DNA from: a virus
Taxonomy: Duplodnaviria > Heunggongvirae > Uroviricota > Caudoviricetes
Length of the DNA stretch: 64,000 bases
Reading direction: 5' to 3' (one strand)
Virus record (IMG/VR): IMGVR_UViG_2734482790_000004
Shown: positions 274-25,567 of the stretch, one piece after another
Layout: each line of letters begins with the position of its first letter
Position numbering within the stretch: position 1 is the stretch's first letter
Translations under genes and position numbers: made by a program
Notes under the pieces: model-generated
What the model was told of the DNA's origin: nothing
The model's input: only the letters and a program-made list of their open reading frames with translations
Database searches by the model: none

Positions 274-3200
274 ATGAACAAGCTATCTATGGGTGTGTTT
301 CGCTGTTCAAGTGTCAGCGAAATATTGAAATACATTAGGGCAATAACATCTCACCGAGCGCCGATTAAATACGGCGTGGAAAAGGTGGAAGGCAAAAGCT
401 ATGACCGACTGCGCCGGGAGGCGAATCAGAAGGCGATAGATTTGCTTAATTCGCTGGTGGACGGCGCGACACTGACAGATGAACAGCGCCAGATCCTGGC
501 CGGGTACACTGGTGAAGGCGGCATTGGCGGGTCCGTCTCCGAATATTACACACCAAAGCCTATCGCTGAAGGTGTCTGGGAGATCATGAAGCTCTACGGC
601 GCGGACGTAGGTAACACTCTGGAACCATCGGCGGGAACCGGCGTTTTTAATGAGACAAAACCGGTTGGTACGGTGATGACCGCGACTGAGATCAGCAGTG
701 TTTCCGGTCGTATAAACCAGTTGTTACACCCGGAAGACAGCGTACAGATTTCCCCGTTCGAACAGCTGGCTATAAACACGCCTAACGATTCATTCGACCA
801 TGTTGTGGGTAACGTTCCGTTCGGCGGTCGTGATAACACACGCAACATCGATAAGCCTTACGCAGAAGAAACGGACATGGGGTCTTACTTCATGCTCCGC
901 ATGCTGGACAAGATAAAACCTGGCGGATTCATGTGTGTGATTGTGCCGCCGTCCATTGTTTCAGGTTCAAACATGAAACGGTTACGCCTGCGCCTATCAC
1001 GGAAAGCTGAATTTCTTGGTGCCCACCGCTTGCCTACCGGTACTTTTGACGCAAACGGGACCAGTACAGTTGTTGATGTGGTGCTGATGCGCAAACATCC
1101 GGCAGAGATGGCTGAGAAAATCCCCCTGGTGGATGAAAGCACTCTCGAATCGGCAAATGTGCTTTGGCCAACGTTTATTTCTGGCAAGTGGTTTGAAAAG
1201 GACGGCCGCCGGTTTGTTCATGGCACCCAGGAAAAGGGCTTCCAGGGGCGTATTGAGGTTCGTGCCGACGGTCAGATTGATAACCAGGCTCTTAAAGCGA
1301 AGCTGATTCATCGTTTCGAAAGCCGTATCGACTGGTCTTTGCTCGATATGGCTGAACCGTCACCGACCGCAGACGTTGTTGGTGAAGGGGAAATGCGCCT
1401 GATTAATGGCGTATGGCAAAAATATGCTGGTGGTCGCTGGATTGAAGCTGATGCAGGGAAGGAACTTAAGATCGATGCTGCCAGTTATGGCGCGGATAGC
1501 TGGGAGGCTCTTCAGCGTAACCTGACTACAACAGAAGGCCGTCTCGGCATGACATTTACCCAGATGGCAAATGTCCGCGATAAGTACACCACATCAATCA
1601 GCGACGATATGGTGCAGCTGGTGGACTGGATTAACAGCCAGCCTGAAAAATACCGTGAACGCTTGTATCGCGGGGCGATGATTGGCCGGATGTTAATTGA
1701 ATATCAGGACATGAAGGCCGCCGGGCATAGTGCTGAACAAATCGAACAGCAGCGCCTTTCTCTGGTATCCCGTTTGCAGGCAGAGATTGACCGTTTTGGT
1801 AACCCCGGTCGCGGTCCGATAGCGAAATTATCGGGGAGCGGTGCGCGCGCCTGGTTTGCTTTCCGTGGTGCAATTAAGCTGGATGGCACTATTTCTGACG
1901 AGCTGACAGGAAAACTGGTTACGCATGATTCCAGCGCCAGTTATGACTCCACCAGCTATCAGGACACCCTGCGTTATCTCTACAGTGATCTCACTCGCGA
2001 TCCAATCCAGCTCGATGATTTCCGCCTTGCGTTTACCGGCGAACTGCCAGCCAGTGATGACGAGTTGCTTAATTTATTGGCCAGCACCCCTGGCATTGCG
2101 GTTTCACCGTATGGCGGGATTGTTCCGTTCGCCCGCGCCACCAGCGGCGACATTAACGAGATAGTGGCTCCAAAACAGGAATTCCTCGCCACGCTCCCCG
2201 ACGGTCCAGTAAAGAACAACGTCCTTAATCAGCTGGCAGCGATCGAAGAGAAGCGCATCAAGACGCCAGCAGAGAATATCCGCTTTAAGCTCAATAGCCG
2301 TTGGTTCGACCGTTCCGTCATTCTGGAGTTTTTGCAGGAAAACGGCTATCCGGATCTGCGCTATGTGCAGTCAGTGCAGCTGGAAGGCGACGAAATGGTT
2401 TCTGACACCTATCACGGTGGTGATGGCCTGTTCGTCGGGCACCGATACGGTGTCGTCCAGCGTAAGGATAAAGAAACAGGCGAGATCCGCTACGAGTGGG
2501 ACCGTAAATCAGGTGAAAACGCGACCGGGTTCCCGGCACAGCTGGAAAAGTATCTCAATGGTGCGCGTATCGGTGGCAAAGATAGCGCGACGGCGAACGG
2601 CTACCGCGAGCAGATGGCACTGCTTGAGGACCAGTTCAATAAGTGGATCAAGACGCACGATCGCTACGATGAGCTGGTTGCTAAATACAACGATGTGTTC
2701 AATAGCAATATCCCGTATGAACACTCTGGCGATCCGCTTGGGTTGAAGGGATTAAGCGGTAAGCGCCAGCCATTTGATTACCAGAATAGCGAGGTGCGCC
2801 GACTGTCCGAAGATGGGCGCGGCATCCTGGGCTTCGGCACCGGGCTGGGTAAAACCACGACCGCGCTGGCGCTTGAGGCGTTCAACTATGAGAACGGTCG
2901 CTCCACCCGTACTGCGTATGTAGTGCCTAAATCAGTGCTGGAAAACTGGTATTACGAAGCAAAAGAATTCCTGAGTGAAGAGGCATTCAGTAACTACCTG
3001 TTCGTCGGTCTTGATGTGCTGATGGATGGCGATCAGATTCGCCAGGTGCAGGTGCTCGATGAGAACGGTAAACCTGTTCTTGGTACTGATGGCACTCCAG
3101 TTATGCGCGATGCTCTTAAGCTGGCAGATGAAGCCACTATCACGGCGCGGATGAACGCGATCCCGCACTCAAATTACCGTGCAGTCGTGTTTACCAAAGA

Positions 3201-6200
3201 ACAATACGCCCGCATTCCGCTACGTGATGACACCGTAGATGAGCATGCACAGGATATGCTTTATGACTTCGTTGCCGCCGGACGCGTAGCCAGCGCAATG
3301 GACTCCGACTCCCACCGCAAAGAGGCCGCGCGTCGCCGGGTATTGTCGGAGTATTCAGATACCGGCACCGAAAAAGCAGAGAAGTATCCGTACTTTGAGG
3401 ATATGGGCTTCGATAGTGTGATCGCCGACGAAGGCCACAACTACCGCAATAGCTATAAAAATGGTCGCGAAGCGTCACAGCTAGCCTATCTGCCCACCAG
3501 CGCGGTAGCGCAATCGGCGCGAGATATGGCAATTAAAAACGCGTACCTGATGAAAAAGAATGGTGGGCGCGGGCCGGTTCTCCTGACTGCAACGCCAGTC
3601 GTTAACACCCCGATCGATGCATACAACATGCTTTCTCATGTTCTGCCGAAGGAATACTGGCAGAACATGGGGATCTACGGTCCTGATGACTTCGTTAAAT
3701 TCTTCGGCAAGACCAGGCTGGAAACGGTACAGAAAATTAGCGGTGAAGTTGAAGAAAAAATGGCGCTGGTGGGCTTTGAAAACCTTGATGCGCTGCGCGG
3801 TATATTCCATCGCTGGGTAACGCTTAAAACGGCGGAAGACGTTAAGGATACCGTGGAGATCCCGGAGCTGGACGAACACCAGCAGGATGCACCACTTACT
3901 GAAGAACAACTGGCGGCGTATGAAGAATTGCGTCAGCAGGCGGAAGCGGCGGCCAAAGCCAACAATGGCGTAACGACCTCGGTCAATGAAGACGGCGTGA
4001 TTGAGCACGAGAAAGCCCGTCCGATCTTCTCAATAATCAGGGATATGGACCGCGTATGTACTGACATGGACCTGTACTATCGCCGGATCACCTATCGTTT
4101 CCTGCCGGAGTACGCCGATGCGGTGCAGCAGCTGGCGGACAGTTTGCCTAAACAAGCCACCAGCGAAGACGACGACAGTGATGATTCAATCACGCAGCAA
4201 TCGCAATACTCCCTGATAGATAAGGGCGAGTTTATTCAGTTGCAGGTTCCGGAAGCGTTCGAGCAGGAAGTGAATAAGCGCCTGGCCAGGTTTGGCATTG
4301 ACGAACAGACCGTAACTCACCCCGTTACGCCCAAATACGCGAAGCTGATTGCCACGCTGAAGGAGTTTTTCCCGGAAGGTAAGCAAATCATCTTCACCGA
4401 TGAAAAAACGCAGCACCAGAAGCTCAAGCGCATTATCTGCAATGCTCTTAACCTTGAACCTTCAAAGGTGGGGATACTGAATGCTCAGACGGTTGCCGAG
4501 GCAGGTAAAACCGGTAAGAAACTGAAAGCGGTTAAACCGCCGAAAGAGTTACCGGATGAACCAACAGATGCACAGATAGCGAAATACAACGAGCAAATGG
4601 CTCTGTATGACGCCTATATCGCGCAGCAAAATGAAATGTCGTTGGGCGGTCTGGAAAAGATTGCAGCCGACTTCCAGGAGGGCCGGACTCCGATCATCAT
4701 CTGCAACAAAAAGGCAGAAGTGGGTATCAACCTGCATCGAGGAACGACTGACATCCATCATCTGACGTTGCCATGGACTCCAGCCAGTATTGCGCAACGA
4801 AACGGTCGCGGTGCCCGAGTTGGCTCCAACCGTGCAAGCGTTCGCGTTCACTACTACTGCGGCAAGGGGTCTTTCGATGAATACCGACTGAAGACGCTGA
4901 AGCGTAAAGCAGGCTGGATCTCCGATATCCTCCGTTCAGATAAGTCAGAAATGGAGAACGCCGACGCCAACGATATGATCGAAATGCAGATGTATACCGC
5001 GAAGGATGACGGCGAACGTCTGGCAATGATGCAGGTTCAAATGGATAAGGCGAAAGCTGCGAAACGCGCTCGCCAGAAAGAACAGGCTACTATCGACCTT
5101 CAGAACTACATCAAGGCGCAGCACGCAGCTGGTGAGGATGTGGAGGTACTTACCGCTGAATTGGAGCGAAGCAAAGCGGAACTTGAAAAGACCACCGCCG
5201 ACGTCGCCAAATTCAAACAGGCGGTAATGGCCAAAGCAGCTGATAACGCAGACTGGAAAGCCCGCTGGGGTAGCGTCCATCACACAGACCGTATGTTGTT
5301 AGCACAGTATCGCGCGTCGTTGAAAAGCGCCATTCAGCGCAAGGCTAATATCTCTCAGGCCATCTCCCGCTATGAGAAATTATTGAACCGTACTCAGAAG
5401 GCCGCGACGGATATCAAACGCCTGCGCCCGCTGGTGGAGGATGCAATAAATAAAGGCATTCTGGATGTTGATCCTGATCTGGTTAACCATGCGAATGAGT
5501 TCCTTGTTATCGGCGATCGCTCATGGCGTGTAGGCCAATACTATGATTGTGCCGGTGATATCGTTCGCATTAAGTCGCTGGACTTCGACAGCCAGCGCGC
5601 AGACGTGGAGATCATCTTTACCTTCAAAGGCACCAAATCGGGTAACTGGGATGTGAAGACGCTGGATAAACAGGTTGATGTAACTCCCGATGAAGATGCT
5701 GTTATGCAGAAAATCAGTGGTGGCGTCTCCATCGCCGGGATTAACGACATCGTTTCCTGTGACGATTTCTACCGTTTCCAGCAGCGCGGCATGATCAAAA
5801 TCACTGACTCATACGGCGTTCAGACTACAGAGTCAGGCTATAGCATTGATTTTGTTGGTACCTATACGGACCCACTGAAGCATGCGGTTTACCCGGATCG
5901 CCGTGACGGCGCGCTGAAGTCGTCAATTGCAAAATGGGTGCTTGGTATGATGTCGGAAGGGAATAACCGCCAGATCCGTTCGGCAGAAGCATTCCTGGTT
6001 GAACTGTTTGGCTCCAATTATGGCGATGTAATCGCGTCATACGGAGATACGCTATCCCCTGAAGCACTTCAGGAGAAAATAGCGGATGCGATCGCCAGAA
6101 TGCCGGAGAAAACAAGCCAGGGGGCTACTCGTAACGGGGATTCTGAACTTGAAGTCACCAATGCCATTTTCGGTACCAATGAGTTCCGGGCGTCAGATTA

Positions 6201-7041
6201 TGAGATCACCACAGCACAGTTTGGCACCATTGGCATTTACAGCAATAAAGCCGAGATCAAGCAGGCAATGGACGCAGCAAGCGCGCGCATCGCAGCAGAA
6301 CGGGAAGCCAATCTGAATCATGCAGTCGCCGCGCTGACTCAATCGTGGGTAACAGCAATCAGGGAGGCCGCCACCACAGGGAAAATCACACCTGCAATAG
6401 CGGATGTCGTAAACGACGGCTCTAAATTTATGGATGCCTATCAAATGGATGCGGTGAAGTTGCCATCAGCCTATGGTCAACTCAGCTATCGCATGACCTA
6501 CAACCTGGTATCAATGTTTTCCGACCTTGCCATCCTTGGGCTGGTGGATCTTAACGAGGTTACGCCGGAATTGCTCAGCATGCGCAAGAATCATGTGGAG
6601 ATATTGCAGAGAATTAACACGGTTCTTGCCGGGCGCACCGATGAAGAGAAACAGGCCGACGCTGATCGGATAAACCTGGCCCTTGGCAACATCACGGAGG
6701 AAGAGATTGCCGCCAGAAACGAGAAACAAGAAGAGTTATCATCAATACAGGGTGATGCCACCAGCATAGCTCAGTCTCTTGGTCTGAATTATCGCGTATC
6801 CACCGCCGACCTGAAGATGATGTACGCACCAAAATTCGCCGCTGGCGAGGTATTTGGGCTTCAGGAAGCCTCAGGCATGAAAGGCGTTCTTTTCCGTGCG
6901 AAAGACGCAATCAAGGCGAAATTCGGCGCTCGCTGGCTGCCAGCGAAGGCGAAGAACAGCGATTTCCCGGGTAACTGGTGGATTATCGAGACAAAACACA
7001 ACGTGGCGGACGTTCTGGCCGTCATCCAACAATACGCATAA
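274..7041 (+). CDS. darB: DarB-like defence-against-restriction protein, 2255 aa (methyltransferase-like region plus SF2 helicase)
   Basis: Single 6.8 kb ORF; length matches P1 DarB from memory; Walker A GFGTGLGKTT and DEGH helicase motifs; AAGGA SD before ATG. Confidence 0.8.
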   Translation: MNKLSMGVFRCSSVSEILKYIRAITSHRAPIKYGVEKVEGKSYDRLRREANQKAIDLLNSLVDGATLTDEQRQILAGYTGEGGIGGSVSEYYTPKPIAEGVWEIMKLYGADVGNTLEPSAGTGVFNETKPVGTVMTATEISSVSGRINQLLHPEDSVQISPFEQLAINTPNDSFDHVVGNVPFGGRDNTRNIDKPYAEETDMGSYFMLRMLDKIKPGGFMCVIVPPSIVSGSNMKRLRLRLSRKAEFLGAHRLPTGTFDANGTSTVVDVVLMRKHPAEMAEKIPLVDESTLESANVLWPTFISGKWFEKDGRRFVHGTQEKGFQGRIEVRADGQIDNQALKAKLIHRFESRIDWSLLDMAEPSPTADVVGEGEMRLINGVWQKYAGGRWIEADAGKELKIDAASYGADSWEALQRNLTTTEGRLGMTFTQMANVRDKYTTSISDDMVQLVDWINSQPEKYRERLYRGAMIGRMLIEYQDMKAAGHSAEQIEQQRLSLVSRLQAEIDRFGNPGRGPIAKLSGSGARAWFAFRGAIKLDGTISDELTGKLVTHDSSASYDSTSYQDTLRYLYSDLTRDPIQLDDFRLAFTGELPASDDELLNLLASTPGIAVSPYGGIVPFARATSGDINEIVAPKQEFLATLPDGPVKNNVLNQLAAIEEKRIKTPAENIRFKLNSRWFDRSVILEFLQENGYPDLRYVQSVQLEGDEMVSDTYHGGDGLFVGHRYGVVQRKDKETGEIRYEWDRKSGENATGFPAQLEKYLNGARIGGKDSATANGYREQMALLEDQFNKWIKTHDRYDELVAKYNDVFNSNIPYEHSGDPLGLKGLSGKRQPFDYQNSEVRRLSEDGRGILGFGTGLGKTTTALALEAFNYENGRSTRTAYVVPKSVLENWYYEAKEFLSEEAFSNYLFVGLDVLMDGDQIRQVQVLDENGKPVLGTDGTPVMRDALKLADEATITARMNAIPHSNYRAVVFTKEQYARIPLRDDTVDEHAQDMLYDFVAAGRVASAMDSDSHRKEAARRRVLSEYSDTGTEKAEKYPYFEDMGFDSVIADEGHNYRNSYKNGREASQLAYLPTSAVAQSARDMAIKNAYLMKKNGGRGPVLLTATPVVNTPIDAYNMLSHVLPKEYWQNMGIYGPDDFVKFFGKTRLETVQKISGEVEEKMALVGFENLDALRGIFHRWVTLKTAEDVKDTVEIPELDEHQQDAPLTEEQLAAYEELRQQAEAAAKANNGVTTSVNEDGVIEHEKARPIFSIIRDMDRVCTDMDLYYRRITYRFLPEYADAVQQLADSLPKQATSEDDDSDDSITQQSQYSLIDKGEFIQLQVPEAFEQEVNKRLARFGIDEQTVTHPVTPKYAKLIATLKEFFPEGKQIIFTDEKTQHQKLKRIICNALNLEPSKVGILNAQTVAEAGKTGKKLKAVKPPKELPDEPTDAQIAKYNEQMALYDAYIAQQNEMSLGGLEKIAADFQEGRTPIIICNKKAEVGINLHRGTTDIHHLTLPWTPASIAQRNGRGARVGSNRASVRVHYYCGKGSFDEYRLKTLKRKAGWISDILRSDKSEMENADANDMIEMQMYTAKDDGERLAMMQVQMDKAKAAKRARQKEQATIDLQNYIKAQHAAGEDVEVLTAELERSKAELEKTTADVAKFKQAVMAKAADNADWKARWGSVHHTDRMLLAQYRASLKSAIQRKANISQAISRYEKLLNRTQKAATDIKRLRPLVEDAINKGILDVDPDLVNHANEFLVIGDRSWRVGQYYDCAGDIVRIKSLDFDSQRADVEIIFTFKGTKSGNWDVKTLDKQVDVTPDEDAVMQKISGGVSIAGINDIVSCDDFYRFQQRGMIKITDSYGVQTTESGYSIDFVGTYTDPLKHAVYPDRRDGALKSSIAKWVLGMMSEGNNRQIRSAEAFLVELFGSNYGDVIASYGDTLSPEALQEKIADAIARMPEKTSQGATRNGDSELEVTNAIFGTNEFRASDYEITTAQFGTIGIYSNKAEIKQAMDAASARIAAEREANLNHAVAALTQSWVTAIREAATTGKITPAIADVVNDGSKFMDAYQMDAVKLPSAYGQLSYRMTYNLVSMFSDLAILGLVDLNEVTPELLSMRKNHVEILQRINTVLAGRTDEEKQADADRINLALGNITEEEIAARNEKQEELSSIQGDATSIAQSLGLNYRVSTADLKMMYAPKFAAGEVFGLQEASGMKGVLFRAKDAIKAKFGARWLPAKAKNSDFPGNWWIIETKHNVADVLAVIQQYA

Positions 7042-7074: not shown

Positions 7075-7515
7075 ATGGCCACACTATCTGATACAATAAA
7101 ACCGAATAAAACATATCTTGAGGCGGTACTCCGTACAGCGTTGTTAGGAAAGACAGAAGACGAATACGTTGATTTCTTCCTGTCAGGGCTACGCGGGCGA
7201 TTACTGAAAAATCCCCGCCTGTACCGCAGCTATGGTCCATACTGGCCGGAAATTAAAAAATTATTACTGGAGCGCGGTTATGGTAATTTCGGTCGTCTCG
7301 TTGACCGTGACGTTCGCAAAATTTACCGTTATGACCGCCCGGCGCTAACACTCATAGCCGCGACGCTCTACAGCCAGGAGCGTTTTGATAATGGTCAGAT
7401 ATACTCAGCCTGGCATTTACTGCCAGTGCCTGAAGAAGTTGACGACCAGGACTATGAGTTTGAGTCTTACGATTTGGAAGTTGAAGCCTTGGCACAGTCT
7501 GGAGAGAAAACTTGA
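7075..7515 (+). CDS. ulx: 146-aa protein downstream of darB (position of P1 Ulx)
   Basis: ORF directly after darB, overlaps next ORF by 4 nt; name by position only. Confidence 0.4.
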   Translation: MATLSDTIKPNKTYLEAVLRTALLGKTEDEYVDFFLSGLRGRLLKNPRLYRSYGPYWPEIKKLLLERGYGNFGRLVDRDVRKIYRYDRPALTLIAATLYSQERFDNGQIYSAWHLLPVPEEVDDQDYEFESYDLEVEALAQSGEKT

Positions 7516-7760
7516 AAAAGCGATACTACACAGTAAAGCATGGGACGCTACGAGCATTACAAGAGTTTGCTGACAAGCATAACGTTGAGGTGCGCAGGGA
7601 AGGGGGAAGTAAAGCTCTGCGCATGTACCGTCCGGACGGGAAATGGCGGACGGTCGTCGATTTCAAAACAAACAGTGTTCCCCAGGGCGTCCGCGACCGG
7701 GCATTCGAAGAATGGGAGCAGATCATCATAGATAACGCATTGCTTCTGAATGCTGATTAA
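7512..7760 (+). CDS. lxc: 82-aa protein (size and position of P1 Lxc, C1 co-repressor)
   Basis: 82-aa ORF translationally coupled to preceding ORF; name by size and position. Confidence 0.4.
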   Translation: MKKRYYTVKHGTLRALQEFADKHNVEVRREGGSKALRMYRPDGKWRTVVDFKTNSVPQGVRDRAFEEWEQIIIDNALLLNAD

Positions 7761-7765
7761 GAACT

Positions 7766-7792
7766 CTCCGGCCTAGGGAGATTAGGCCGGAG
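7766..7792 (+). terminator. Stem-loop after lxc-like ORF (8-bp stem CTCCGGCC/GGCCGGAG), weak U-tract
   Basis: Perfect inverted repeat 7766-7773/7785-7792 followed by AT-rich sequence. Confidence 0.35.
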
Positions 7793-8090
7793 ATAAATAT
7801 ACTATATAAACTTAGATACAATATCGTGAATCTGTTGTAGCGGGATATCTTCCATCTCATTCTTAATAAGAGAGCGGTTAGATGCTGTCAGTGAAGGCCA
7901 TTTTGTTTTCCAGGCTAGATATGCTCGCCATGAGTAGCCTGTTTCGTAAGGTTTATTCATATAAGTCATTGAGTGTTCAACCGCATGTATGTATTTTTTC
8001 TCAAAATTGGTTCCTTTTACTTCAAATAAACTACCGAAATAAATAAGCCATTTTGCCAGGTGTTCATACTGCTCCCATGCGCCAGGCTTT

Positions 8091-9107
8091 TTAGTAAGTT
8101 CTATTTTTTTTATCTATTATATTACAAAAAACATTTAATACATTTTTATTATTCCAGCTATATCCAGATGATGAAATGGAGGAAATGATATGATAAAAAG
8201 AATCCTCTAGCTTCAAGAACTCTATTTTATACTCTCTTCCGTTTTTTATTACCGATTTGATTGAGTGCCTCAATTTGTCTTTTATTTTTTTTGCTTCTGG
8301 AATTTTATCGTTAAGTTTTCTAAAGAAATCAGATACCTCTGTTTTATCTATAACCCTAACCCCATAGCAGGAAAAATAGTAATCTTTAATAGGTTGCAAT
8401 AGTTCCCCTCGGGAAACAAGGAAAATATTGGAGGACATTACGTTGTCCCGTGAAAATACCTTATATTCATTTATAATAGCCTTTAGGTTCGCGTCACTTA
8501 GAGAATAGCCAAGGATAACAATAGTGTTTTCATGTAGAACTGTGCTTAGTTTATTAGAAAAGTAAGAATTACCATTTATAAATCTGAAATAATCCTCGCT
8601 AGTAACAACCATGTCTGATGGGGAGTCTATAGAACCGTGAACATGGTAGACTTTAACCTCACAATTATATTTTGGAATTGGCAGGCCGGGGGTGATTGTA
8701 CACGTTCGATTCTCTCCAGCCAGCTTTTCTGCTAACTTGTCATAATTTGTCGTAATTACTTTAAATGTGTTTTCTTTGAAAAAGTCTTGAATATATTCAA
8801 TTGATGGATCAAGTTCGATTGAGGCTATGATTTTCTCAATCTCTTGGTAAATATTTTTCCCCGAAAGTATAAATTTTAGTGCAATAACCTGAGCAGCTTC
8901 TTCAAGGCTAAGGTCTTTTGCTTTTCCATCAGGAAATAATTCCTCTTTGAGTGAGTCACCATCCTTCAATAAACCGCACAGTTGCTCCAATAAAGATTGC
9001 CAACTTGGGGCTTTATCATCAGAAACAGCCTTTGAAAATCCAGTGCCTGTAAGAAAGCACAGCCTATGTGTAGCCGCTGCATAGGCAATTTCTATATACT
9101 CGCTCAT
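8091..9107 (-). CDS. SIR2-like (sirtuin-fold) protein, 338 aa, in AT-rich islet; candidate defence gene
   Basis: Ordered motifs GTGFS (aa 21-25), TTNYD (aa 119-123), HVHGS (aa 155-159); GGAG SD 7 nt before ATG; strongly AT-rich relative to flanks. Confidence 0.6.
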   Translation of the reverse strand: MSEYIEIAYAAATHRLCFLTGTGFSKAVSDDKAPSWQSLLEQLCGLLKDGDSLKEELFPDGKAKDLSLEEAAQVIALKFILSGKNIYQEIEKIIASIELDPSIEYIQDFFKENTFKVITTNYDKLAEKLAGENRTCTITPGLPIPKYNCEVKVYHVHGSIDSPSDMVVTSEDYFRFINGNSYFSNKLSTVLHENTIVILGYSLSDANLKAIINEYKVFSRDNVMSSNIFLVSRGELLQPIKDYYFSCYGVRVIDKTEVSDFFRKLNDKIPEAKKIKDKLRHSIKSVIKNGREYKIEFLKLEDSFYHIISSISSSGYSWNNKNVLNVFCNIIDKKNRTY

Positions 9108-9163
9108 TACTTACTCCATTTACTTATAGTTCTACGGAGAAGTATACCCTAATGCATTGACGT

Positions 9164-9805
9164 TTATAGATAATTTCCTTTTCCTGTTAATACTCCCTTA
9201 GGCACCTGTTTTTGTGCCAGCGTTTGGGTGCCGCGAATTATGTTAATCAGAGGGCTTAGTAACGATGGTTCCTGGCGTGCCTCAACTTCTCCAGCCATTG
9301 CCCTGATGTAGTCGGCGCTGGCAACGTTGTTGTATTCCGTCGCAAAGCAACATAGTAACGTCAGAACATGCTCTGTCGTTATTTCGCTCCAGTTGATGTT
9401 GAAAAATTCATCGCCTTTTTTATCGTGTTCGGAATCGAAGATGCTTTGGTGGAGGATGTATTTGCCGGATTCCTTGCGCGGTAACTTGATTGCTTTCTGG
9501 CGTTCCAGCTCCTTATAAATCTGCATTGCCTCAATTAGTACCGGCCTGCCGTTCATGAAGGGATCGCGCAACCTTACACGCTGGCCAACTCGACCAGTAA
9601 TAAAGCTGTTTTCCTCTTCCACCAGCACGATAAAACCCTTTTCCTCTTTTTCTCGCAATTCGCGCAGCAGCTGGAGTTCCATATCGCGGCGGCGTTCAGG
9701 GTAGCTGGTCCGCTCAGCCATTATTAGCTCATTGTTGATCCATGCAGCAGTCATTGACGCCGGTTTGCCGACGCTCATCGAAACAACGCATATTTTCTTA
9801 TCCAT
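9164..9805 (-). CDS. 213-aa protein at the position of P1 mat (particle maturation), starting at MDKKICVV
   Basis: Backbone-like GC; internal Met with AGGGGG SD chosen over the 262-aa track ORF 9164..9952. Confidence 0.4.
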   Translation of the reverse strand: MDKKICVVSMSVGKPASMTAAWINNELIMAERTSYPERRRDMELQLLRELREKEEKGFIVLVEEENSFITGRVGQRVRLRDPFMNGRPVLIEAMQIYKELERQKAIKLPRKESGKYILHQSIFDSEHDKKGDEFFNINWSEITTEHVLTLLCCFATEYNNVASADYIRAMAGEVEARQEPSLLSPLINIIRGTQTLAQKQVPKGVLTGKGNYL

Positions 9806-9994: not shown

Positions 9995-10555
9995 TTAGTG
10001 CATGATGTTTGCCATCTCATAGGCGTCAGCCAGCAACTCCATCTCTGACTTGTTCAGCAAGGTGAATTCTTTCTTGCCTCCAACCACACCATCGGCATGA
10101 ACAGGGACCAGCCAGGGGTATTTTTCTCTTACTTCAGCCGGTGCTGCATGCTGGTGGTGCCATCTACAAAGGGGCAATTGCTTTTTGTGACAACCCGGCG
10201 CGGTACGACCGGAGATATGGTGCAGAGATACCTCTTCAGATATTACTCCATGCATGTAGCAGGCAATGCAGGGGAGAGCGCCAAGAGCATTGGCGATGCT
10301 CCGTTCCTCCGCTGTCGATGTTCGCCCCTTCAAGCCACGAGATTTTATCTTTACCGCACTTTTCCGCGTTTTGCTGGCTGGTGGGCGCTCTTTCTGTTTA
10401 GCGATACGGCGGTCGATAGAATCCCGCATTTTCTGATATTGCGATTCTCGCCAGGCGGGGTCAGCCAACTTTTCCCGTTGCCGAGCGATCGCTCGTTCTC
10501 TGGCTGCCTTCTGCCACTCGCGGCGCTGTTCAAGTTTTTGTTCGATTGTTTTCAT
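9995..10555 (-). CDS. ref: Ref recombination-enhancement HNH endonuclease, 186 aa
   Basis: 186 aa as in P1 Ref; Cys/His cluster CIACYMHG...HHISG...CHKK...CRWHH typical of HNH. Confidence 0.75.
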   Translation of the reverse strand: MKTIEQKLEQRREWQKAARERAIARQREKLADPAWRESQYQKMRDSIDRRIAKQKERPPASKTRKSAVKIKSRGLKGRTSTAEERSIANALGALPCIACYMHGVISEEVSLHHISGRTAPGCHKKQLPLCRWHHQHAAPAEVREKYPWLVPVHADGVVGGKKEFTLLNKSEMELLADAYEMANIMH

Positions 10556-11165: not shown

Positions 11166-12197
11166 CTAATCGCCATCTTCCAGCAGGCGCACCATTGCCC
11201 CCGTTTCACTATCCAGGTTACGAATGTAGTTCATGACAATATTTACGTTGGTCCAGCCGCCAGCTTGCATGATCTCCGGTATAGAAACTCCGGCGCGGGC
11301 CATATCTCGCGCGGCACCGACACGGGCACTATGTCCAGACCAGGCCAGGTATCGCTGACCAGAGTCATCTTTTGCCCCGTAAATCAATCGGTGAGTTGCT
11401 TCAAAAATCCCTTCCAGGGCGCGAGTTGATAGCTGGCTGGTGGATGATGGCGCGGCAACACCATTTTTTCTGACGCGGCAAAACAGGTAGTTATTCGGAT
11501 CATCAGCTACACCAGAGACAGAAATCCATCGCTCAACCAGTTTAGTTACCCCCAGGCTAAGTGCCTTCTCTACACCAGCGGTGCTAACCAGCGTTTTCGT
11601 TCTGCCAATATGGATTAACATTCTCCCACCGTCAGTACGTGAGATATCTTTAACCCTGATCCTGGAAATTTCGGCTATACGTAACAGGGTGTTATAAGCA
11701 ATCCCCAGAAATGCCAGATTACGTATATCCTGGCAGCGATCGCTATTTTCCATGAGTGAACGAACCTGGTCGAAATCAGTGCGTTCGAACGCCAGTGCCT
11801 GTTTTGCACGTTCACCGGCATCAACGTTTTCTTTTCGGATCCGTCGCATGACCAGTGAAACAGCATTGCTGTCACTTGGTCGTGGCAGACCGGACCGACG
11901 ATGAAGCATATTTAGCTGGCCCAAATGTTGCTGGATAGTTTTCACTGCCAGACCACGCGCCTGAAGATATAGAAGATAATCGCGAACATCTTCAGGTTCT
12001 GCGGGAAACCACTTCCGGTTATTCAACTTGCACCATGCCGCCCACGACCGGCAAACGGACAGAAGCATTTTCCAGGTATGCTCAGAAAACGCCTGGCGAT
12101 CCCTGAACATGTCCATCAGGTTCTTGCGAACCTCATCACTCGTTGCATCGACCGGTAATGCAGGCAAATTTTGGTGTACGGTCAGTAAATTGGACAT
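11166..12197 (-). CDS. cre: Cre site-specific tyrosine recombinase, 343 aa
   Basis: Translation MSNLLTVHQNLPALPVDATSDEVRKNLMDMFRDRQAFSEHTWK... recognised as Cre; loxP 420 bp upstream. Confidence 0.97.
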   Translation of the reverse strand: MSNLLTVHQNLPALPVDATSDEVRKNLMDMFRDRQAFSEHTWKMLLSVCRSWAAWCKLNNRKWFPAEPEDVRDYLLYLQARGLAVKTIQQHLGQLNMLHRRSGLPRPSDSNAVSLVMRRIRKENVDAGERAKQALAFERTDFDQVRSLMENSDRCQDIRNLAFLGIAYNTLLRIAEISRIRVKDISRTDGGRMLIHIGRTKTLVSTAGVEKALSLGVTKLVERWISVSGVADDPNNYLFCRVRKNGVAAPSSTSQLSTRALEGIFEATHRLIYGAKDDSGQRYLAWSGHSARVGAARDMARAGVSIPEIMQAGGWTNVNIVMNYIRNLDSETGAMVRLLEDGD

Positions 12198-19563: not shown

Positions 19564-21126
19564 ATGAAAATGACAAGTATTCAACAACGTGCAGAGCTTC
19601 ATCGTCAAATCTGGCAAATTGCTAACGATGTCAGGGGTTCGGTCGATGGATGGGATTTTAAGCAATACGTTCTGGGCGCACTTTTCTACCGTTTTATCAG
19701 CGAAAATTTTTCCAGCTATATTGAAGCCGGTGATGACAGCATCTGTTATGCGAAACTGGATGACAGCGTAATTACTGATGACATTAAAGACGATGCCATC
19801 AAAACCAAAGGCTACTTCATCTACCCAAGTCAGCTTTTCTGCAACGTAGCTGCGAAAGCAAATACCAATGACAGACTGAACGCAGATTTAAACAGCATCT
19901 TCGTTGCTATCGAAAGTTCTGCTTACGGTTATCCTTCAGAAGCAGACATCAAAGGTTTGTTTGCTGATTTCGATACCACCAGTAACCGCCTGGGTAACAC
20001 CGTTAAGGATAAAAATGCCCGCCTGGCCGCGGTTCTGAAAGGGGTTGAAGGGTTAAAGCTTGGCGACTTTAACGAACATCAGATTGACCTGTTCGGCGAT
20101 GCCTATGAGTTCCTGATTTCTAACTATGCCGCGAATGCCGGTAAGTCAGGCGGCGAGTTCTTTACACCGCAGCACGTCTCTAAGCTGATTGCACAACTGG
20201 CTATGCACGGGCAGACCCACGTTAACAAAATCTACGACCCGGCAGCAGGTTCCGGTTCTCTGTTATTGCAGGCTAAAAAGCAGTTTGATGACCACATCAT
20301 CGAAGAAGGTTTTTTTGGTCAGGAAATCAACCATACGACCTATAACCTGGCGCGTATGAACATGTTTTTGCACAACATCAACTACGACAAGTTTGATATC
20401 AAGCTGGGCAATACGCTGACTGAGCCGCACTTCAGAGATGAAAAACCGTTTGATGCCATCGTTTCTAACCCGCCGTATTCGGTGAAATGGATTGGCAGCG
20501 ATGACCCGACGCTGATTAACGATGAGCGTTTTGCCCCGGCTGGCGTTCTGGCCCCCAAATCCAAAGCTGACTTTGCGTTTGTATTACATGCGCTGAACTA
20601 TCTTTCGGCCAAAGGTCGTGCTGCGATTGTCTGCTTCCCGGGTATTTTTTACCGTGGCGGCGCAGAGCAGAAAATCCGTCAGTATCTGGTCGATAATAAC
20701 TATGTCGAAACCGTAATTTCACTGGCTCCGAACCTGTTCTTTGGCACCACCATTGCCGTAAACATTCTGGTTCTGTCCAAACATAAAACGGATACCAACG
20801 TTCAGTTTATTGATGCCAGCGAACTGTTCAAAAAAGAGACCAACAACAATATCCTGACCGATGCCCATATCGAACAGATTATGCAGGTATTTGCCAGCAA
20901 GGAAGATGTTGCTCATCTGGCAAAATCTGTCGCGTTCGAAGCCGTTGTCGCGAATGACTATAACCTGTCGGTGAGCAGCTATGTGGAAGCGAAAGATAAC
21001 CGCGAAATTATCAATATTGCTGAACTGAATGCAGAGCTGAAAACCACGGTCAGCAAAATCGACCAGTTGCGTAAAGATATTGATGCAATTGTGGCTGAAA
21101 TTGAAGGCTGCGAGGTGCAGAAATGA
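19564..21126 (+). CDS. hsdM: Type I R-M methyltransferase subunit HsdM (EcoR124-like, family IC), 520 aa
   Basis: NPPY motif ([10 protein letters not shown]), AdoMet motif DPAAGSGS; near-identity to remembered EcoR124I HsdM. Confidence 0.9.
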
Positions 21127-22329
21127 GCGAGTTGAGTTATCTGGAAAAATTGATGGATGGGGTTGAGGTTGAGTGGTTGCCACTCTCAAAAGTATTCAAC
21201 TTAAGGAATGGTTATACACCGTCTAAAACTAAAAAAGAATTTTGGGCGAATGGTGATATACCTTGGTTCAGAATGGATGACATACGTGAAAATGGTAGAA
21301 TTCTAGGGAATTCACTTCAAAAAAATTTCATCCTGCGCCGTAAAAGGGGGGAAACTATTTCCTGAAAATTCAATATTAATATCAACGTCGGCAACAATTG
21401 GTGAGCATGCTTTAATCACTGTACCTCATCTAGCCAATCAAAGGTTTACATGTTTGGCTTTAAAAGAGTCTTATGCTGATTGCTTTGATATTAAATTTTT
21501 ATTTTACTACTGTTTTTCTTTAGCTGAGTGGTGCCGAAAAAACACAACGATGTCCAGTTTTGCGTCTGTTGATATGGATGGATTCAAAAAATTTTTAATC
21601 CCTCGCCCCTGCCCGGATAATCCGGAAAAATCCCTTGCCATCCAGTCTGAAATCGTTCGGATTCTGGATAAGTTTACTGCACTTACCGCTGAGCTTACCG
21701 CTGAGCTTAATATGCGTAAAAAACAGTACAACTACTATCGCGACCAGTTGTTGAGTTTTAAAGAGGGTGAGGTTGAGTGGAAGACTTTGGGAACATTTGC
21801 AGATAATTTTGATTCTCTTAGAAAACCAATAACTAGTGGATTAAGGGAGACTGGAAATATTCCCTATTATGGTGCGTCAGGCATTGTTGATTACGTAAAA
21901 GATTATATTTTTGATGATGACCTGTTATTAATTTCTGAAGATGGTGCGAATCTTATTGCAAGAAATACCCCTATAGCTTTTAGCATTAGCGGTAAAACGT
22001 GGGTGAATAATCATGCTCATGTACTTAAATTCAAAAACTACACTGAACAAAAATTTGTTGAATATTACTTAAACAATATCAATCTTACGCCGTACATATC
22101 AGGAGCAGCCCAGCCAAAGCTAAATAAGAAAAACTTAGAAAGTATCCGTATTCCTAATCCATCACTAAAAGAAAAAGAGCGGATTGTTACTATTCTGGAT
22201 AAATTCGACACCCTGACTAACTCCATCACCGAAGGTCTCCCGCGTGAAATCGAGTTACGCCAGAAACAATACGAGTACTATCGTGATTTACTGTTCAGTT
22301 TCCCAAAACCTGAAACAGTCAGTAATTAA
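21123..22329 (+). pseudogene. hsdS: Type IC specificity subunit HsdS, interrupted by +1 frameshift in G6 tract (21346-21351)
   Basis: Track ORFs 21123..21365 and 21454..22329 join into one HsdS when one G is removed; conserved central TAEL repeats and C-terminal region. Confidence 0.8.
21685..21708 (+). repeat. 2 x 12-bp direct repeat encoding TAEL-TAEL in HsdS central conserved region
   Basis: ACCGCTGAGCTT x2. Confidence 0.8.
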
Positions 22330-22450
22330 TTGACCATTGCTACCGACCGGGCCACCTTAACATCCGGTCTGTATATAGACTATTTTTTACACGCTGGAAG
22401 TCGCCCTTAAAGCTCTTCCGGCCCTTGCCAGACGGCACAAAGGATGCGCT

Positions 22451-25400
22451 ATGACTCATCAGACATACACCATTGCTGAATCCAATAACTTTATCGTTCT
22501 TGATAAGTACATCAAAGCTGAGCCAACAGGCGACAGCTACCAGAGCGAATCGGACCTGGAACGTGAACTGATTCAGGACCTGCAAAATCAGGGCTATGAA
22601 TTTATACCCGTAAAATCACAGTCAGCGATGCTGGCCAACGTTCGGGAACAGCTTCAGAGCCTCAATGGTGTGATGTTTAATGACAGCGAGTGGCGGCGCT
22701 TCACGGAGCAGTATCTGGACAACCCCAGCGATGGTATTCTGGATAAAATCCGTAAAATCCATATCGACTATATTTGCGACTTTATTTTTGATGACGAGCG
22801 TCTTGAGAACATCTATCTGATAGATAAAAAGAATCTCATGCGCAATAAGGTGCAGATTATCCAGCAGTTTGAACAGGCAGGTTCTCACGCTAACCGTTAT
22901 GACGTAACTATCCTGGTTAATGGCTTGCCACTGGTGCAAATCGAACTGAAAAAGCGCGGCGTGGCGATTCGTGAGGCTTTCAACCAGATACATCGTTACA
23001 GTAAAGAGAGTTTTAACAGCGAAAACTCCCTGTTTAAGTATCTGCAACTGTTTGTCATTTCTAACGGCACCGATACCCGTTATTTTGCCAACACAACAAA
23101 GCGCGATAAAAACAGTTTTGACTTCACCATGAACTGGGCGAAATCAGACAATACACTGATTAAAGACCTCAAAGACTTTACCGCTACCTTTTTCCAGAAA
23201 CATACTCTGCTTAATGTTCTGGTGAACTACAGCGTTTTTGACAGTAGTCAGACGCTACTGGTGATGCGACCGTACCAGATTGCCGCCACCGAACGAATCT
23301 TATGGAAAATCAACAGCTCCTATAAAGCGAAAAACTGGTCTACCCCCGAAAGCGGTGGCTTTATCTGGCACACCACCGGTTCTGGTAAAACCCTCACCAG
23401 CTTTAAAGCCGCGCGGCTGGCAACAGAACTGGACTTTATTGATAAAGTCTTCTTCGTGGTCGACAGGAAAGACCTCGATTACCAGACTATGAAGGAATAT
23501 CAGCGTTTTTCGCCAGATAGTGTTAACGGCTCGGAAAATACCGCAGGTCTAAAACGAAATCTGGATAAGGACGATAACAAAATTATCGTCACCACTATTC
23601 AGAAACTTAATAACCTGATGAAAGCAGAAAGCGACCTGCCTGTATACAATCAGCAAGTGGTGTTTATATTTGATGAATGCCACCGCAGCCAGTTTGGAGA
23701 AGCGCAGAAAAACCTGAAGAAGAAATTCAAACGCTATTATCAGTTTGGTTTTACCGGCACTCCTATTTTCCCGGAAAACGCTTTAGGTTCAGAAACGACC
23801 GCCAGCGTATTTGGTCGTGAATTGCATTCGTATGTAATTACCGATGCGATTCGAGATGAAAAAGTGCTTAAATTCAAGGTGGACTACAACGATGTGCGGC
23901 CACAGTTTAAGTCTTTAGAGACAGAAACTGACGAGAAAAAACTAAGTGCGGCTGAAAATCAGCAGGCGTTTCTTCATCCCATGCGTATTCAGGAAATCAC
24001 GCAATATATTCTGAATAATTTCCGCCAGAAAACTCACCGTACCTTCCCTGGCTCAAAAGGTTTTAATGCTATGTTGGCAGTGAGCAGCGTGGATGCCGCG
24101 AAAGCCTATTATGCGACGTTTAAACGGTTACAAGAAGAAGCCGCTAATAAATCGGCTACCTATAAACCGCTGCGTATTGCGACAATCTTCTCCTTTGCCG
24201 CCAATGAAGAACAAAATGCCATTGGTGAAATTTCCGATGAAACTTTTGATACCAGCGCAATGGACAGCAGTGCTAAAGAGTTTCTGGACGCTGCAATTCG
24301 TGAATATAACAGCCATTTTAAAACTAACTTTAGCACCGACAGTAACGGTTTTCAGAACTACTATCGTGATTTAGCCCAGCGGGTTAAAAATCAGGATATC
24401 GATCTGCTAATTGTCGTGGGGATGTTTTTAACCGGCTTCGATGCTCCAACATTGAACACGCTATTCGTCGATAAAAACTTGCGTTTTCACGGCCTGATGC
24501 AGGCATTTTCCCGCACCAACCGTATTTATGATGCAACTAAAACCTTCGGTAATATCGTCACTTTCCGGGATCTGGAACGCTCAACTATTGATGCCATAAC
24601 GCTGTTTGGTGACAAAAACACCAAAAATGTGGTGTTAGAAAAGAGTTATACAGAGTATATGGAAGGCTTTACTGATGCTACTACTGGTGAAGCTAAACGC
24701 GGCTTCATGACAGTAGTTTCAGAACTGGAACAACGGTTCCCTGACCCTACCAGTATTGAAAGTGAAAAAGAGAAGAAAGACTTCGTTAAACTGTTTGGCG
24801 AATACCTGCGTGCCGAGAACATCCTGCAAAACTATGATGAATTTGCCACGCTAAAAGCCCTGCAACAAATCGATCTTAGCGATCCTGTTGCGGTAGAAAA
24901 ATTCAAAGCAGAACATTATGTGGATGATGAAAAGTTCGCTGAATTGCAAACAATTCGTCTCCCTGCTGATCGCAAGATTCAGGATTATCGTTCTGCCTAT
25001 AACGATATTCGCGACTGGCAGCGCCGTGAGAAAGAAGCTGAGAAAAAAGAGAAATCAACCACTGACTGGGATGACGTAGTTTTTGAGGTCGATTTGCTGA
25101 AGTCTCAGGAAATAAACCTGGATTATATCCTTGGACTGATTTTCGAACACAACAGACAAAATAAAGGCAAGGGCGAAATGATCGAAGAGGTCAAACGCTT
25201 AATTCGTTCAAGCCTAGGGAACCGTGCTAAAGAGGGCCTGGTGGTCGATTTTATTCAGCAAACGAACCTGGATGATTTACCAGACAAAGCCAGTATCATT
25301 GAGGCATTCTTTACGTTTGCTCAACGCGAACAGCAACGTGAAGCAGAAGCATTGATAAAAGAAGAAAATCTCAATGAAGAGGCAGCAAAACGCTATATTC

Positions 25401-25567
25401 GCACGTCTTTAAAACGCGAATACGCCACCGAAAATGGCACAGAATTAAACGAAACATTACCAAAACTTAGTCCGTTGAATCCGCAATATAAAACGAAAAA
25501 ACAGGCAGTTTTCCAGAAAATCGTCTCGTTTATTGAGAAGTTTAAAGGCGTAGGCGGAAAAATATAG
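22451..25567 (+). CDS. hsdR: Type I restriction endonuclease subunit HsdR (EcoR124-like), 1038 aa
   Basis: 1038 aa; helicase motifs GSGKT, DECHRS; follows hsdM-hsdS. Confidence 0.9.

Follow-up and report, generated by a model that had tools for sequence, protein, structure and literature searches.

P1-like plasmids have an AT-rich variation hot-spot, named RD-1 by Venturini et al. 2019 (PMC6906374), which holds the EcoP1I res/mod genes in P1 and, in SJ46, a protein taken to be CapRelSJ46, a defence protein in which toxin and antitoxin are fused and which senses the capsid (Zhang et al. 2022, PMC9712102). Another defence protein, DSR2 of Bacillus subtilis (PDB 8wkt, 8k98 and others), has an N-terminal SIR2 domain (residues 1-298) followed by a helical HEAT-repeat region which binds a phage tail-tube protein, leading to hydrolysis of nicotinamide adenine dinucleotide (NAD+) (PMC11263360). 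Here we describe a SIR2-family gene in the RD-1 slot of the IMG/VR virus record IMGVR_UViG_2734482790_000004, a stretch of 64,000 nucleotides (hereafter the window) which is a P1-like phage-plasmid. We favour, with somewhat better than even confidence, the reading that this is a one-gene RD-1 cassette for a family of 430-470 amino acids (aa) with SIR2 and HEAT-like domains and a DSR2-like NAD-depleting anti-phage action, and that the window copy has been disabled or crippled by a frameshift.

The position of the gene matches that of two established anti-phage systems. In P1 (NC_005856) the res/mod genes, interrupted by IS5, lie precisely between mat and lxc, and the slot of phage SJ46 is occupied by a gene for a RelA/SpoT protein of 373 aa, placed and oriented like the window SIR2 gene; the protein was found to match PDB 7ztb over residues 1-373 (E 1.4e-250), and on this sequence match we take it to be CapRelSJ46. 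Both systems share an identical insertion point with the SIR2 cassette, between the lxc and mat stop codons, and the CapRelSJ46 cassette is also like it in orientation and in its one-gene layout of leader, gene and hairpin. However, both are unrelated to the SIR2 protein and its mechanism, EcoP1I being a type III restriction system and CapRelSJ46 a fused toxin-antitoxin which acts by tRNA pyrophosphorylation after sensing a capsid protein. In phage RCS47 the site is empty, the stop codons of lxc and mat being only 39 bp apart, and an alignment of RCS47 with the window loses homology at the lxc stop codon and regains it at the mat stop codon. The islet is thus found between the mat and lxc stops, is AT-rich and is missing from some relatives, as is RD-1 cargo. 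The mean guanine plus cytosine (GC) content of 7761..9163 is 35.6%, against 50.7% and 47.4% for the 2-kb flanks and 47.7% for the whole window; it falls from about 0.50 to 0.30-0.39 over 7700-9200. These data bear out the initial annotation of this DNA in placing a sharp compositional islet between lxc and mat, at the locus where P1 has res-mod, and the swap of one defence cassette for another that it proposed is supported by res/mod in P1, CapRelSJ46 in SJ46 and the empty site in RCS47. Its figure of about 30% GC holds as a sharp drop, but 30% is the minimum of 300-nt segments rather than the mean. The features of the slot are as follows.

7512..7760, plus strand: lxc (C1 modulator), left backbone flank
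7761..9163: AT-rich cargo cassette of 1403 bp between the lxc and mat stop codons, the RD-1 or res-mod slot
7765..7793, minus strand: strong terminator-like hairpin (11-bp stem, 7 G-C pairs) just past the true stop codon, where the SIR2 and lxc genes converge
7802..9107, minus strand: SIR2-family gene, 434 aa if intact, here +1 frameshifted (pseudogene or truncated allele)
7802..8103, minus strand: out-of-frame remnant coding for residues 335-434 of the intact protein
8091..9107, minus strand: 338-aa open reading frame (ORF) with the SIR2 domain (aa 1-256), the linker helix, the first helices of the C-terminal domain and then 5 out-of-frame codons (NRTY, stop)
8104..8111, minus strand: A8 homopolymer at codon 333, the frameshift site; A7 in intact copies
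8285..8292, minus strand: second A8 homopolymer, at codon 272, intact in the window; the site of a -1 frameshift in NC_017653.1
8637..8747, minus strand: catalytic core, with the codons of Asn121 (8745..8747), Asp123 (8739..8741) and His157 (8637..8639)
9108..9163, minus strand: 56-bp leader from the mat stop codon to the SIR2 ATG, with a GGAG Shine-Dalgarno sequence
9164..9805, minus strand: mat (maturation control), right backbone flank, immediately upstream of the SIR2 gene and in the same direction

The cassette therefore consists of the leader, the gene and the hairpin, and the gene in it is broken. The initial annotation had described a complete 338-aa gene (8091..9107, minus strand) with the motifs GTGFS (aa 21-25), TTNYD (aa 119-123) and HVHGS (aa 155-159). 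We confirmed these coordinates and motifs, but the islet is filled by a 434-aa gene with a one-base frameshift, so that the minimal 338-aa effector proposed earlier is a frameshift artefact and the functional unit is a two-domain protein of 434 aa; the approximately 150 aa to which no motif had been assigned complete the SIR2 fold, of which they form the second half up to about aa 256, and go on into the start of a helical domain. The islet of the closest plasmid, NZ_CP122597.1, was found to differ from that of the window by a single base, T7 instead of T8 at 8104..8111 (A7 and A8 on the coding strand), and with one base taken out of the A8 run the translation becomes 434 aa long and identical to WP_064669538.1, the product of a 1305-bp gene in NZ_CP122597.1. 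The frame shifts at codon 334, by which the last 100 residues (335-434) are lost, and a 55-aa ORF at 7802..7969 translates the end of the original reading frame.

Several lines of evidence bear on what this break means. We aligned 117 homologues of about 431-465 aa, obvious fragments left out, and found that conservation reaches the C-terminus, with 12 invariant positions past the break (W344, Q346, W353, S379, M383, G390, S392, Y396, W399, W403, N410 and R411). Because the last 100 residues, including these 12 positions, are gone, the window allele is most likely inactive, a loss of function that we infer from the sequence, and it would be without most of the proposed sensor or regulatory domain. 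The exact 338-aa product (WP_244461805.1) is recorded on 3 contigs in the cluster table, or 4 by contig look-up, and the exact 434-aa sequence on 161 contigs in the cluster table. A sequencing mistake confined to a single assembly was considered as the cause of the frameshift and rejected, as the truncated allele was found in two separate further read-set assemblies, SRR2239624 (islet 100% identical) and ERR1619089 (1 extra single-nucleotide polymorphism, SNP); given its presence in both, we take the A8 truncation to be a genuine minor allele. Programmed frameshifting as a conserved feature was likewise rejected, because the A8 version was matched in 0 of the 59 complete Escherichia coli genomes which have the stretch (58 best copies are 1 base shorter, as for A7). 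A deregulated toxic form of the truncated allele also seems unlikely, because the allele is stably inherited in at least two isolates. A second break was found in NC_017653.1 (plasmid p12579_1 of E. coli O55:H7 RM12579), where the codon-272 tract is 1 base short and the gene is divided into ORFs of 274 aa and 137 aa; this would be an inactivation independent of that in the window, unless it is a homopolymer sequencing error.

Given these two breaks, the A7/A8 tracts could be slippage switches, by phase variation or by transcriptional slippage which restores some full-length protein, that tune a costly abortive-infection gene. Long runs of A or T make RNA polymerase slip. Two long A-runs in one gene of 1.3 kb, with independent one-base indels in different isolates (codon 333 in the window, codon 272 in NC_017653.1), would fit such a switch, as would the frequency of C-terminal-fragment ORFs of this family, which are so numerous that they have clusters, and a separate PHROG, of their own. 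However, A-runs are expected by composition at 35.6% GC, the tracts code for Lys-Lys, which is common in a lysine-rich protein, the shifted copies are a small minority, and the NC_017653.1 break may itself be a homopolymer error. Slips of this kind might otherwise come from selection against a costly gene or, in some records, from sequencing error. We regard a switch as unlikely and read the window break as the loss of an otherwise intact cassette for a predicted 434-aa NADase.

The intact protein was found to have the fold of a defence NADase. Pfam SIR2_2 (PF13289) matches aa 117-253 with 84.8 bits against a cut-off of 24.5, and the same for the 434-aa form. AlphaFold2 modelled the 434-aa form with confidence (pLDDT, the predicted local distance difference test, 85.9; pTM, the predicted template-modelling score, 0.84). 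In this model a SIR2 domain of Rossmann type (aa 1-256) is followed by a long helix (258-289) and then by an all-helical domain (295-431), and the C-terminus of about 175 aa is a HEAT-like all-alpha solenoid. In Foldseek the best matches of the SIR2 domain were DSR2 (E 8e-11) and ThsA, consistent with the SIR2 fold announced by the initial annotation, and a sequence profile likewise matched ThsA (E 1e-11) and DSR2 over residues 10-257. The closest structures overall were KomC, ThsA, DSR2 and Avs5. N121, D123 and H157 are invariant among the 117 homologues and coincide, in the alignment to ThsA and DSR2, with the TTNYD and VHG motifs of those two proteins. From these sequence features the domain is assigned to the defence NADase type, with Asn121 and His157 as predicted catalytic residues and no zinc ribbon.

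The RefSeq name of the protein, SIR2 family NAD-dependent protein deacylase, would instead suggest a true sirtuin-type deacylase or ADP-ribosyltransferase which modifies host or phage proteins to the advantage of the P1-like element (in its lysogeny or its maintenance, for example) and does not deplete NAD+. A SIR2 fold and a catalytic His are indeed common to deacylases, and the position of the gene directly downstream of mat with no intervening terminator would also fit such a role. However, the fold is nearer to the defence NADases than to the deacylase sirtuins, and the two CxxC pairs of the canonical sirtuin zinc module are not present; the protein has no CxxC at all, its Cys residues are at 17, 44, 136, 149, 247 and 328, and only C17 is invariant. 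Because of this lack of a CxxC zinc-ribbon motif, the RefSeq label is probably generic, and we consider a deacylase or transferase quite improbable compared with an NAD-depleting enzyme.

Among described systems, DSR2 is like the 434-aa protein in being a single gene with an N-terminal SIR2 domain of the NADase type, the same TTNYD and VHG motifs and an all-helical part behind that domain. However, DSR2 is about 1005 aa long, its helical part taking up about 700 aa (HTH, helix-bundle, six HEAT repeats plus a domain at the C-terminus) against about 175 helical residues here, and there is no detectable sequence similarity between the C-terminal domains of the two. The NCBIfam Dsr2 model (NF041819) gave 29.9 bits against a cut-off of 1400, limited to 117-212, and Dsr1 (NF041818) gave 21.6 bits against the same cut-off of 1400, so neither DSR2 nor DSR1 membership is indicated; nor does the 434-aa protein have a DSR2-type helical architecture of about 700 aa with a cavity for the tail-tube protein. 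By both sequence and architecture it is not a member of the DSR2 family. ThsA of type I Thoeris has a C-terminal SLOG domain which binds glycocyclic ADP-ribose (gcADPR) and needs the TIR protein ThsB, while the 434-aa protein has no SLOG or STALD domain and no adjacent TIR gene; the PADLOC ThsA profiles match the SIR2 part only and the islet is single-gene. KomC of Kongming acts with KomA and KomB, whereas no partner genes accompany the 434-aa protein in any context examined, and no gene for a HerA-type ATPase, as in SIR2-HerA (Nezha) or PD-T7-2, is adjacent. The SIR2 protein of PD-T7-2 (Vassallo et al.) was considered and set aside, as it belongs to a two-gene system of SIR2 and ATPase and to a different family. 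The best PADLOC match was PDC-S25 (E 4e-25 to 1e-28), a single-gene SIR2 candidate of 517-528 aa, but of the 517 profile positions the match took in 127-283 (up to 326) and no more, the C-terminal halves are unaligned and there is a length gap of about 90 aa. PDC-S25 is itself a computational candidate only.

By analogy to DSR2, we hypothesize that the helical domain of the intact protein would keep the enzyme inactive until it bound some protein of the infecting phage. At that point the SIR2 domain would hydrolyse NAD+, probably after oligomerising, and the loss of NAD+ would abort the infection, protecting the lysogen population and the resident P1-like element. This would be the logic of DSR2 in about 40% of its length. 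NADase activity, an anti-phage role and sensing through the C-terminal domain are in our view the most likely properties of the protein, on the analogy with these systems. In a bolder form, which we regard as unlikely, the 434-aa protein would be a 'mini-DSR2' and the smallest self-contained sensor-effector SIR2 immune protein so far described, its 3-4 HEAT-like repeats sensing a phage protein, its alleles would correspond to different phage specificities and its A-tracts would be on/off slippage switches, with the window copy 'off'.

A number of observations weigh against an anti-phage NADase of this kind. No PADLOC v2 model spans the whole protein and the matches are to the SIR2 domain only. 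The HEAT-like match is generic, at 5-12% identity, and so says little about the binding partner of the domain. A search with the profile of the C-terminal domain alone returned only fragments of the same family and no fusions to other effectors, so a modular-sensor role is without support from domain shuffling, although this was a word-index search of limited sensitivity and hence a weak negative. The deacylase name in RefSeq, discussed above, stands on the same side. Expression is a further difficulty: no sigma-70 consensus site upstream of the SIR2 gene passed the promoter scan and no terminator was found between mat and the SIR2 gene, and for these reasons the gene may be read through from the mat promoters. 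In P1 these promoters are C1-repressed or late (P1 record NC_005856), which would be a poor fit to constitutive protection of a lysogen. Finally, we found in the searchable literature no description of the 434-aa family or of SIR2 cargo in P1-like elements, and no experiment on the family.

The RD-1 hot-spot, SIR2 NADase defence and the database annotation of the gene were already known, whereas the compact single-gene SIR2 plus HEAT-like family as a defence candidate, with two alleles in the RD-1 slot of P1-like elements, appears to be undescribed. The suggestion in the initial annotation that the gene is undescribed is accordingly right in part: no PADLOC v2 or NCBIfam model or paper was found, but the gene is annotated in RefSeq, its family is in PHROGs as phrog_7567 ('unknown function'), it is present in about 2.5% of complete E. 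coli genomes, and RD-1 variability was published in 2019. Should the intact protein prove to be an anti-phage NADase, it would offer a very compact and tractable sensor-effector (434 aa, one gene, confident model) and a model for how a short helical-repeat domain gates a SIR2 enzyme. As the window gene is broken, the A7 allele of 434 aa is the relevant form for experiments.

A profile search of 1.84 billion cluster representatives revealed 96 clusters at E <= 1e-30, and many further proteins of 430-470 aa match the profile over their full length. Outside P1-like elements, homologues were found in the following contexts.

E. coli (GCA_900460945.1, 7001..8311): 55%-identical homologue (P0088) at the extreme integrase end of a lambdoid prophage, beside the ccm operon
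[quoted passage not shown]
Idiomarina: homologue adjoining Hachiman (HamA and DEAD helicase) and an integrase
Stutzerimonas: homologue adjoining NERD-UvrD
Delftia: homologue adjoining Mrr
Halomonas: homologue inside an island with HNH, HsdR_N, DUF87 and STAND genes

These contexts are typical of defence genes and mobile elements, and only that in Pseudoalteromonas was uninformative. The neighbours differ in every context examined, and no conserved partner gene was found, in agreement with the single-gene unit of the initial annotation. Genes of 207 aa and 179 aa upstream of the Pseudoalteromonas and Halomonas homologues were considered as partners and rejected, as they share no Pfam family and are absent from the P1, prophage and other contexts. 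In some strains a gene for an AIDA-type autotransporter is inserted just past the E. coli prophage homologue, at another variable 'moron' position.

Within P1-like plasmids the slot also holds a second SIR2 allele, WP_023156640.1, of 435 aa and 59% identical to the first; identity is 63% over the SIR2 domain and falls to 50% over the C-terminal region. A comparison of NZ_AP023222.2 3445..4854 to positions 7761..9163 of the window showed that the 56-bp leaders of the two alleles differ at 1 of 56 positions, whereas the hairpins downstream bear no relation to each other; indeed, the hairpin at 7765..7793 is peculiar to the window cassette, and the cassettes of the second allele and of SJ46 CapRel each have a different hairpin in the same place. 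The contrast between leaders and hairpins points to a regulatory element that is conserved or, alternatively, to a recombination breakpoint within the cassette's 5' end. A near-full-length copy of the SIR2 gene was found in about 124 PLSDB plasmids, the flanks of the slot being matched by about 600 PLSDB records, and the islet is matched in 133 of 5426 complete E. coli genomes (about 2.5%), full-length in 69; the carrier strains include enterotoxigenic E. coli (ETEC), Shiga toxin-producing E. coli (STEC), O55:H7 and O26. Searches of phage genomes for the islet by DNA and by protein returned DNA matches to the flanks only and protein matches only to distant SIR2 proteins of Gram-positive phages, and the gene was found instead in records filed as plasmids. 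Because the gene is common in P1-like plasmids and E. coli, it could affect host ranges in phage therapy and competition among resistance-spreading phage-plasmids.

With SIR2 as a third cargo type besides EcoP1I and CapRelSJ46, RD-1 is marked as a defence hotspot worth systematic mining. Other P1-like relatives have one or two uncharacterised genes in the slot. Phage JL22 (locus L015, 1323..2273) has a 316-aa protein with a partial match to the PADLOC candidate PDC-S34, and two further phages (loci L016 and L017, 1300..2925) have a divergent gene pair of about 230-240 aa and about 200-230 aa with no matches. The cargo of these three phages represents possible further defence candidates.

Instead of defending against lytic phages, the gene in the slot could also serve mobile elements in their competition with each other, with the SIR2 protein acting in exclusion of P1-like elements or plasmids, as an addiction-like module, or as a counter-defence on NAD-derived immune signals. 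The P1 res/mod genes of the same slot also serve plasmid stabilisation (PMC6906374), two SIR2 alleles alternate at one locus, and nucleotide signals regulate the systems that have this ThsA-like and KomC-like SIR2 fold. However, neither an antitoxin-like partner nor a second gene is present, the protein ends in a helical repeat and has no SLOG, Macro or other ligand-binding domain, and the chromosomal homologues lie among classical anti-phage genes, so that competition is in our judgement an improbable explanation, and we retain that of an anti-phage NADase with a C-terminal sensor. Least probable of all, and in our view very unlikely, is that the 338-aa product is itself functional as a minimal stand-alone SIR2 effector such as a deregulated or constitutively primed NADase, since although this ORF retains the entire SIR2 domain with the catalytic residues and is inherited in at least two read sets differing by one SNP, the family is conserved to the C-terminus with its 12 invariant positions past the break, the intact form outnumbers the truncated one by 161 recorded contigs to 3 and A8 is absent from all 59 complete genomes, and a one-base homopolymer slip is the commonest kind of inactivating mutation.

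The backbone around the slot includes the following further genes, and a complete-looking type I restriction-modification locus was observed at 19564..25567, in another variable region of the P1 backbone.

274..7041, plus strand: darB
7075..7515, plus strand: ulx
9995..10555, minus strand: ref
11166..12197, minus strand: cre
19564..21126: hsdM (N6_Mtase, HsdM_N)
21123..21365 and 21454..22329: hsdS, seemingly split into ORFs of 80 aa and 291 aa (Methylase_S domains)
22451..25567: hsdR (HSDR_N, SWI2_SNF2, EcoR124_C)

At the right flank of the slot, the final approximately 60 nt of mat on the cassette side (9164..9260 compared) are more diverged from RCS47 than the remaining flank, a pattern compatible with recombination inside the 3' end of mat as the route of cassette exchange. 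In the restriction-modification locus, the arrangement of the two ORFs suggests that the window hsdS may also be disrupted. The hsdS region (21001..22500, GC 0.37-0.40) is the sole other low-GC patch in the window.

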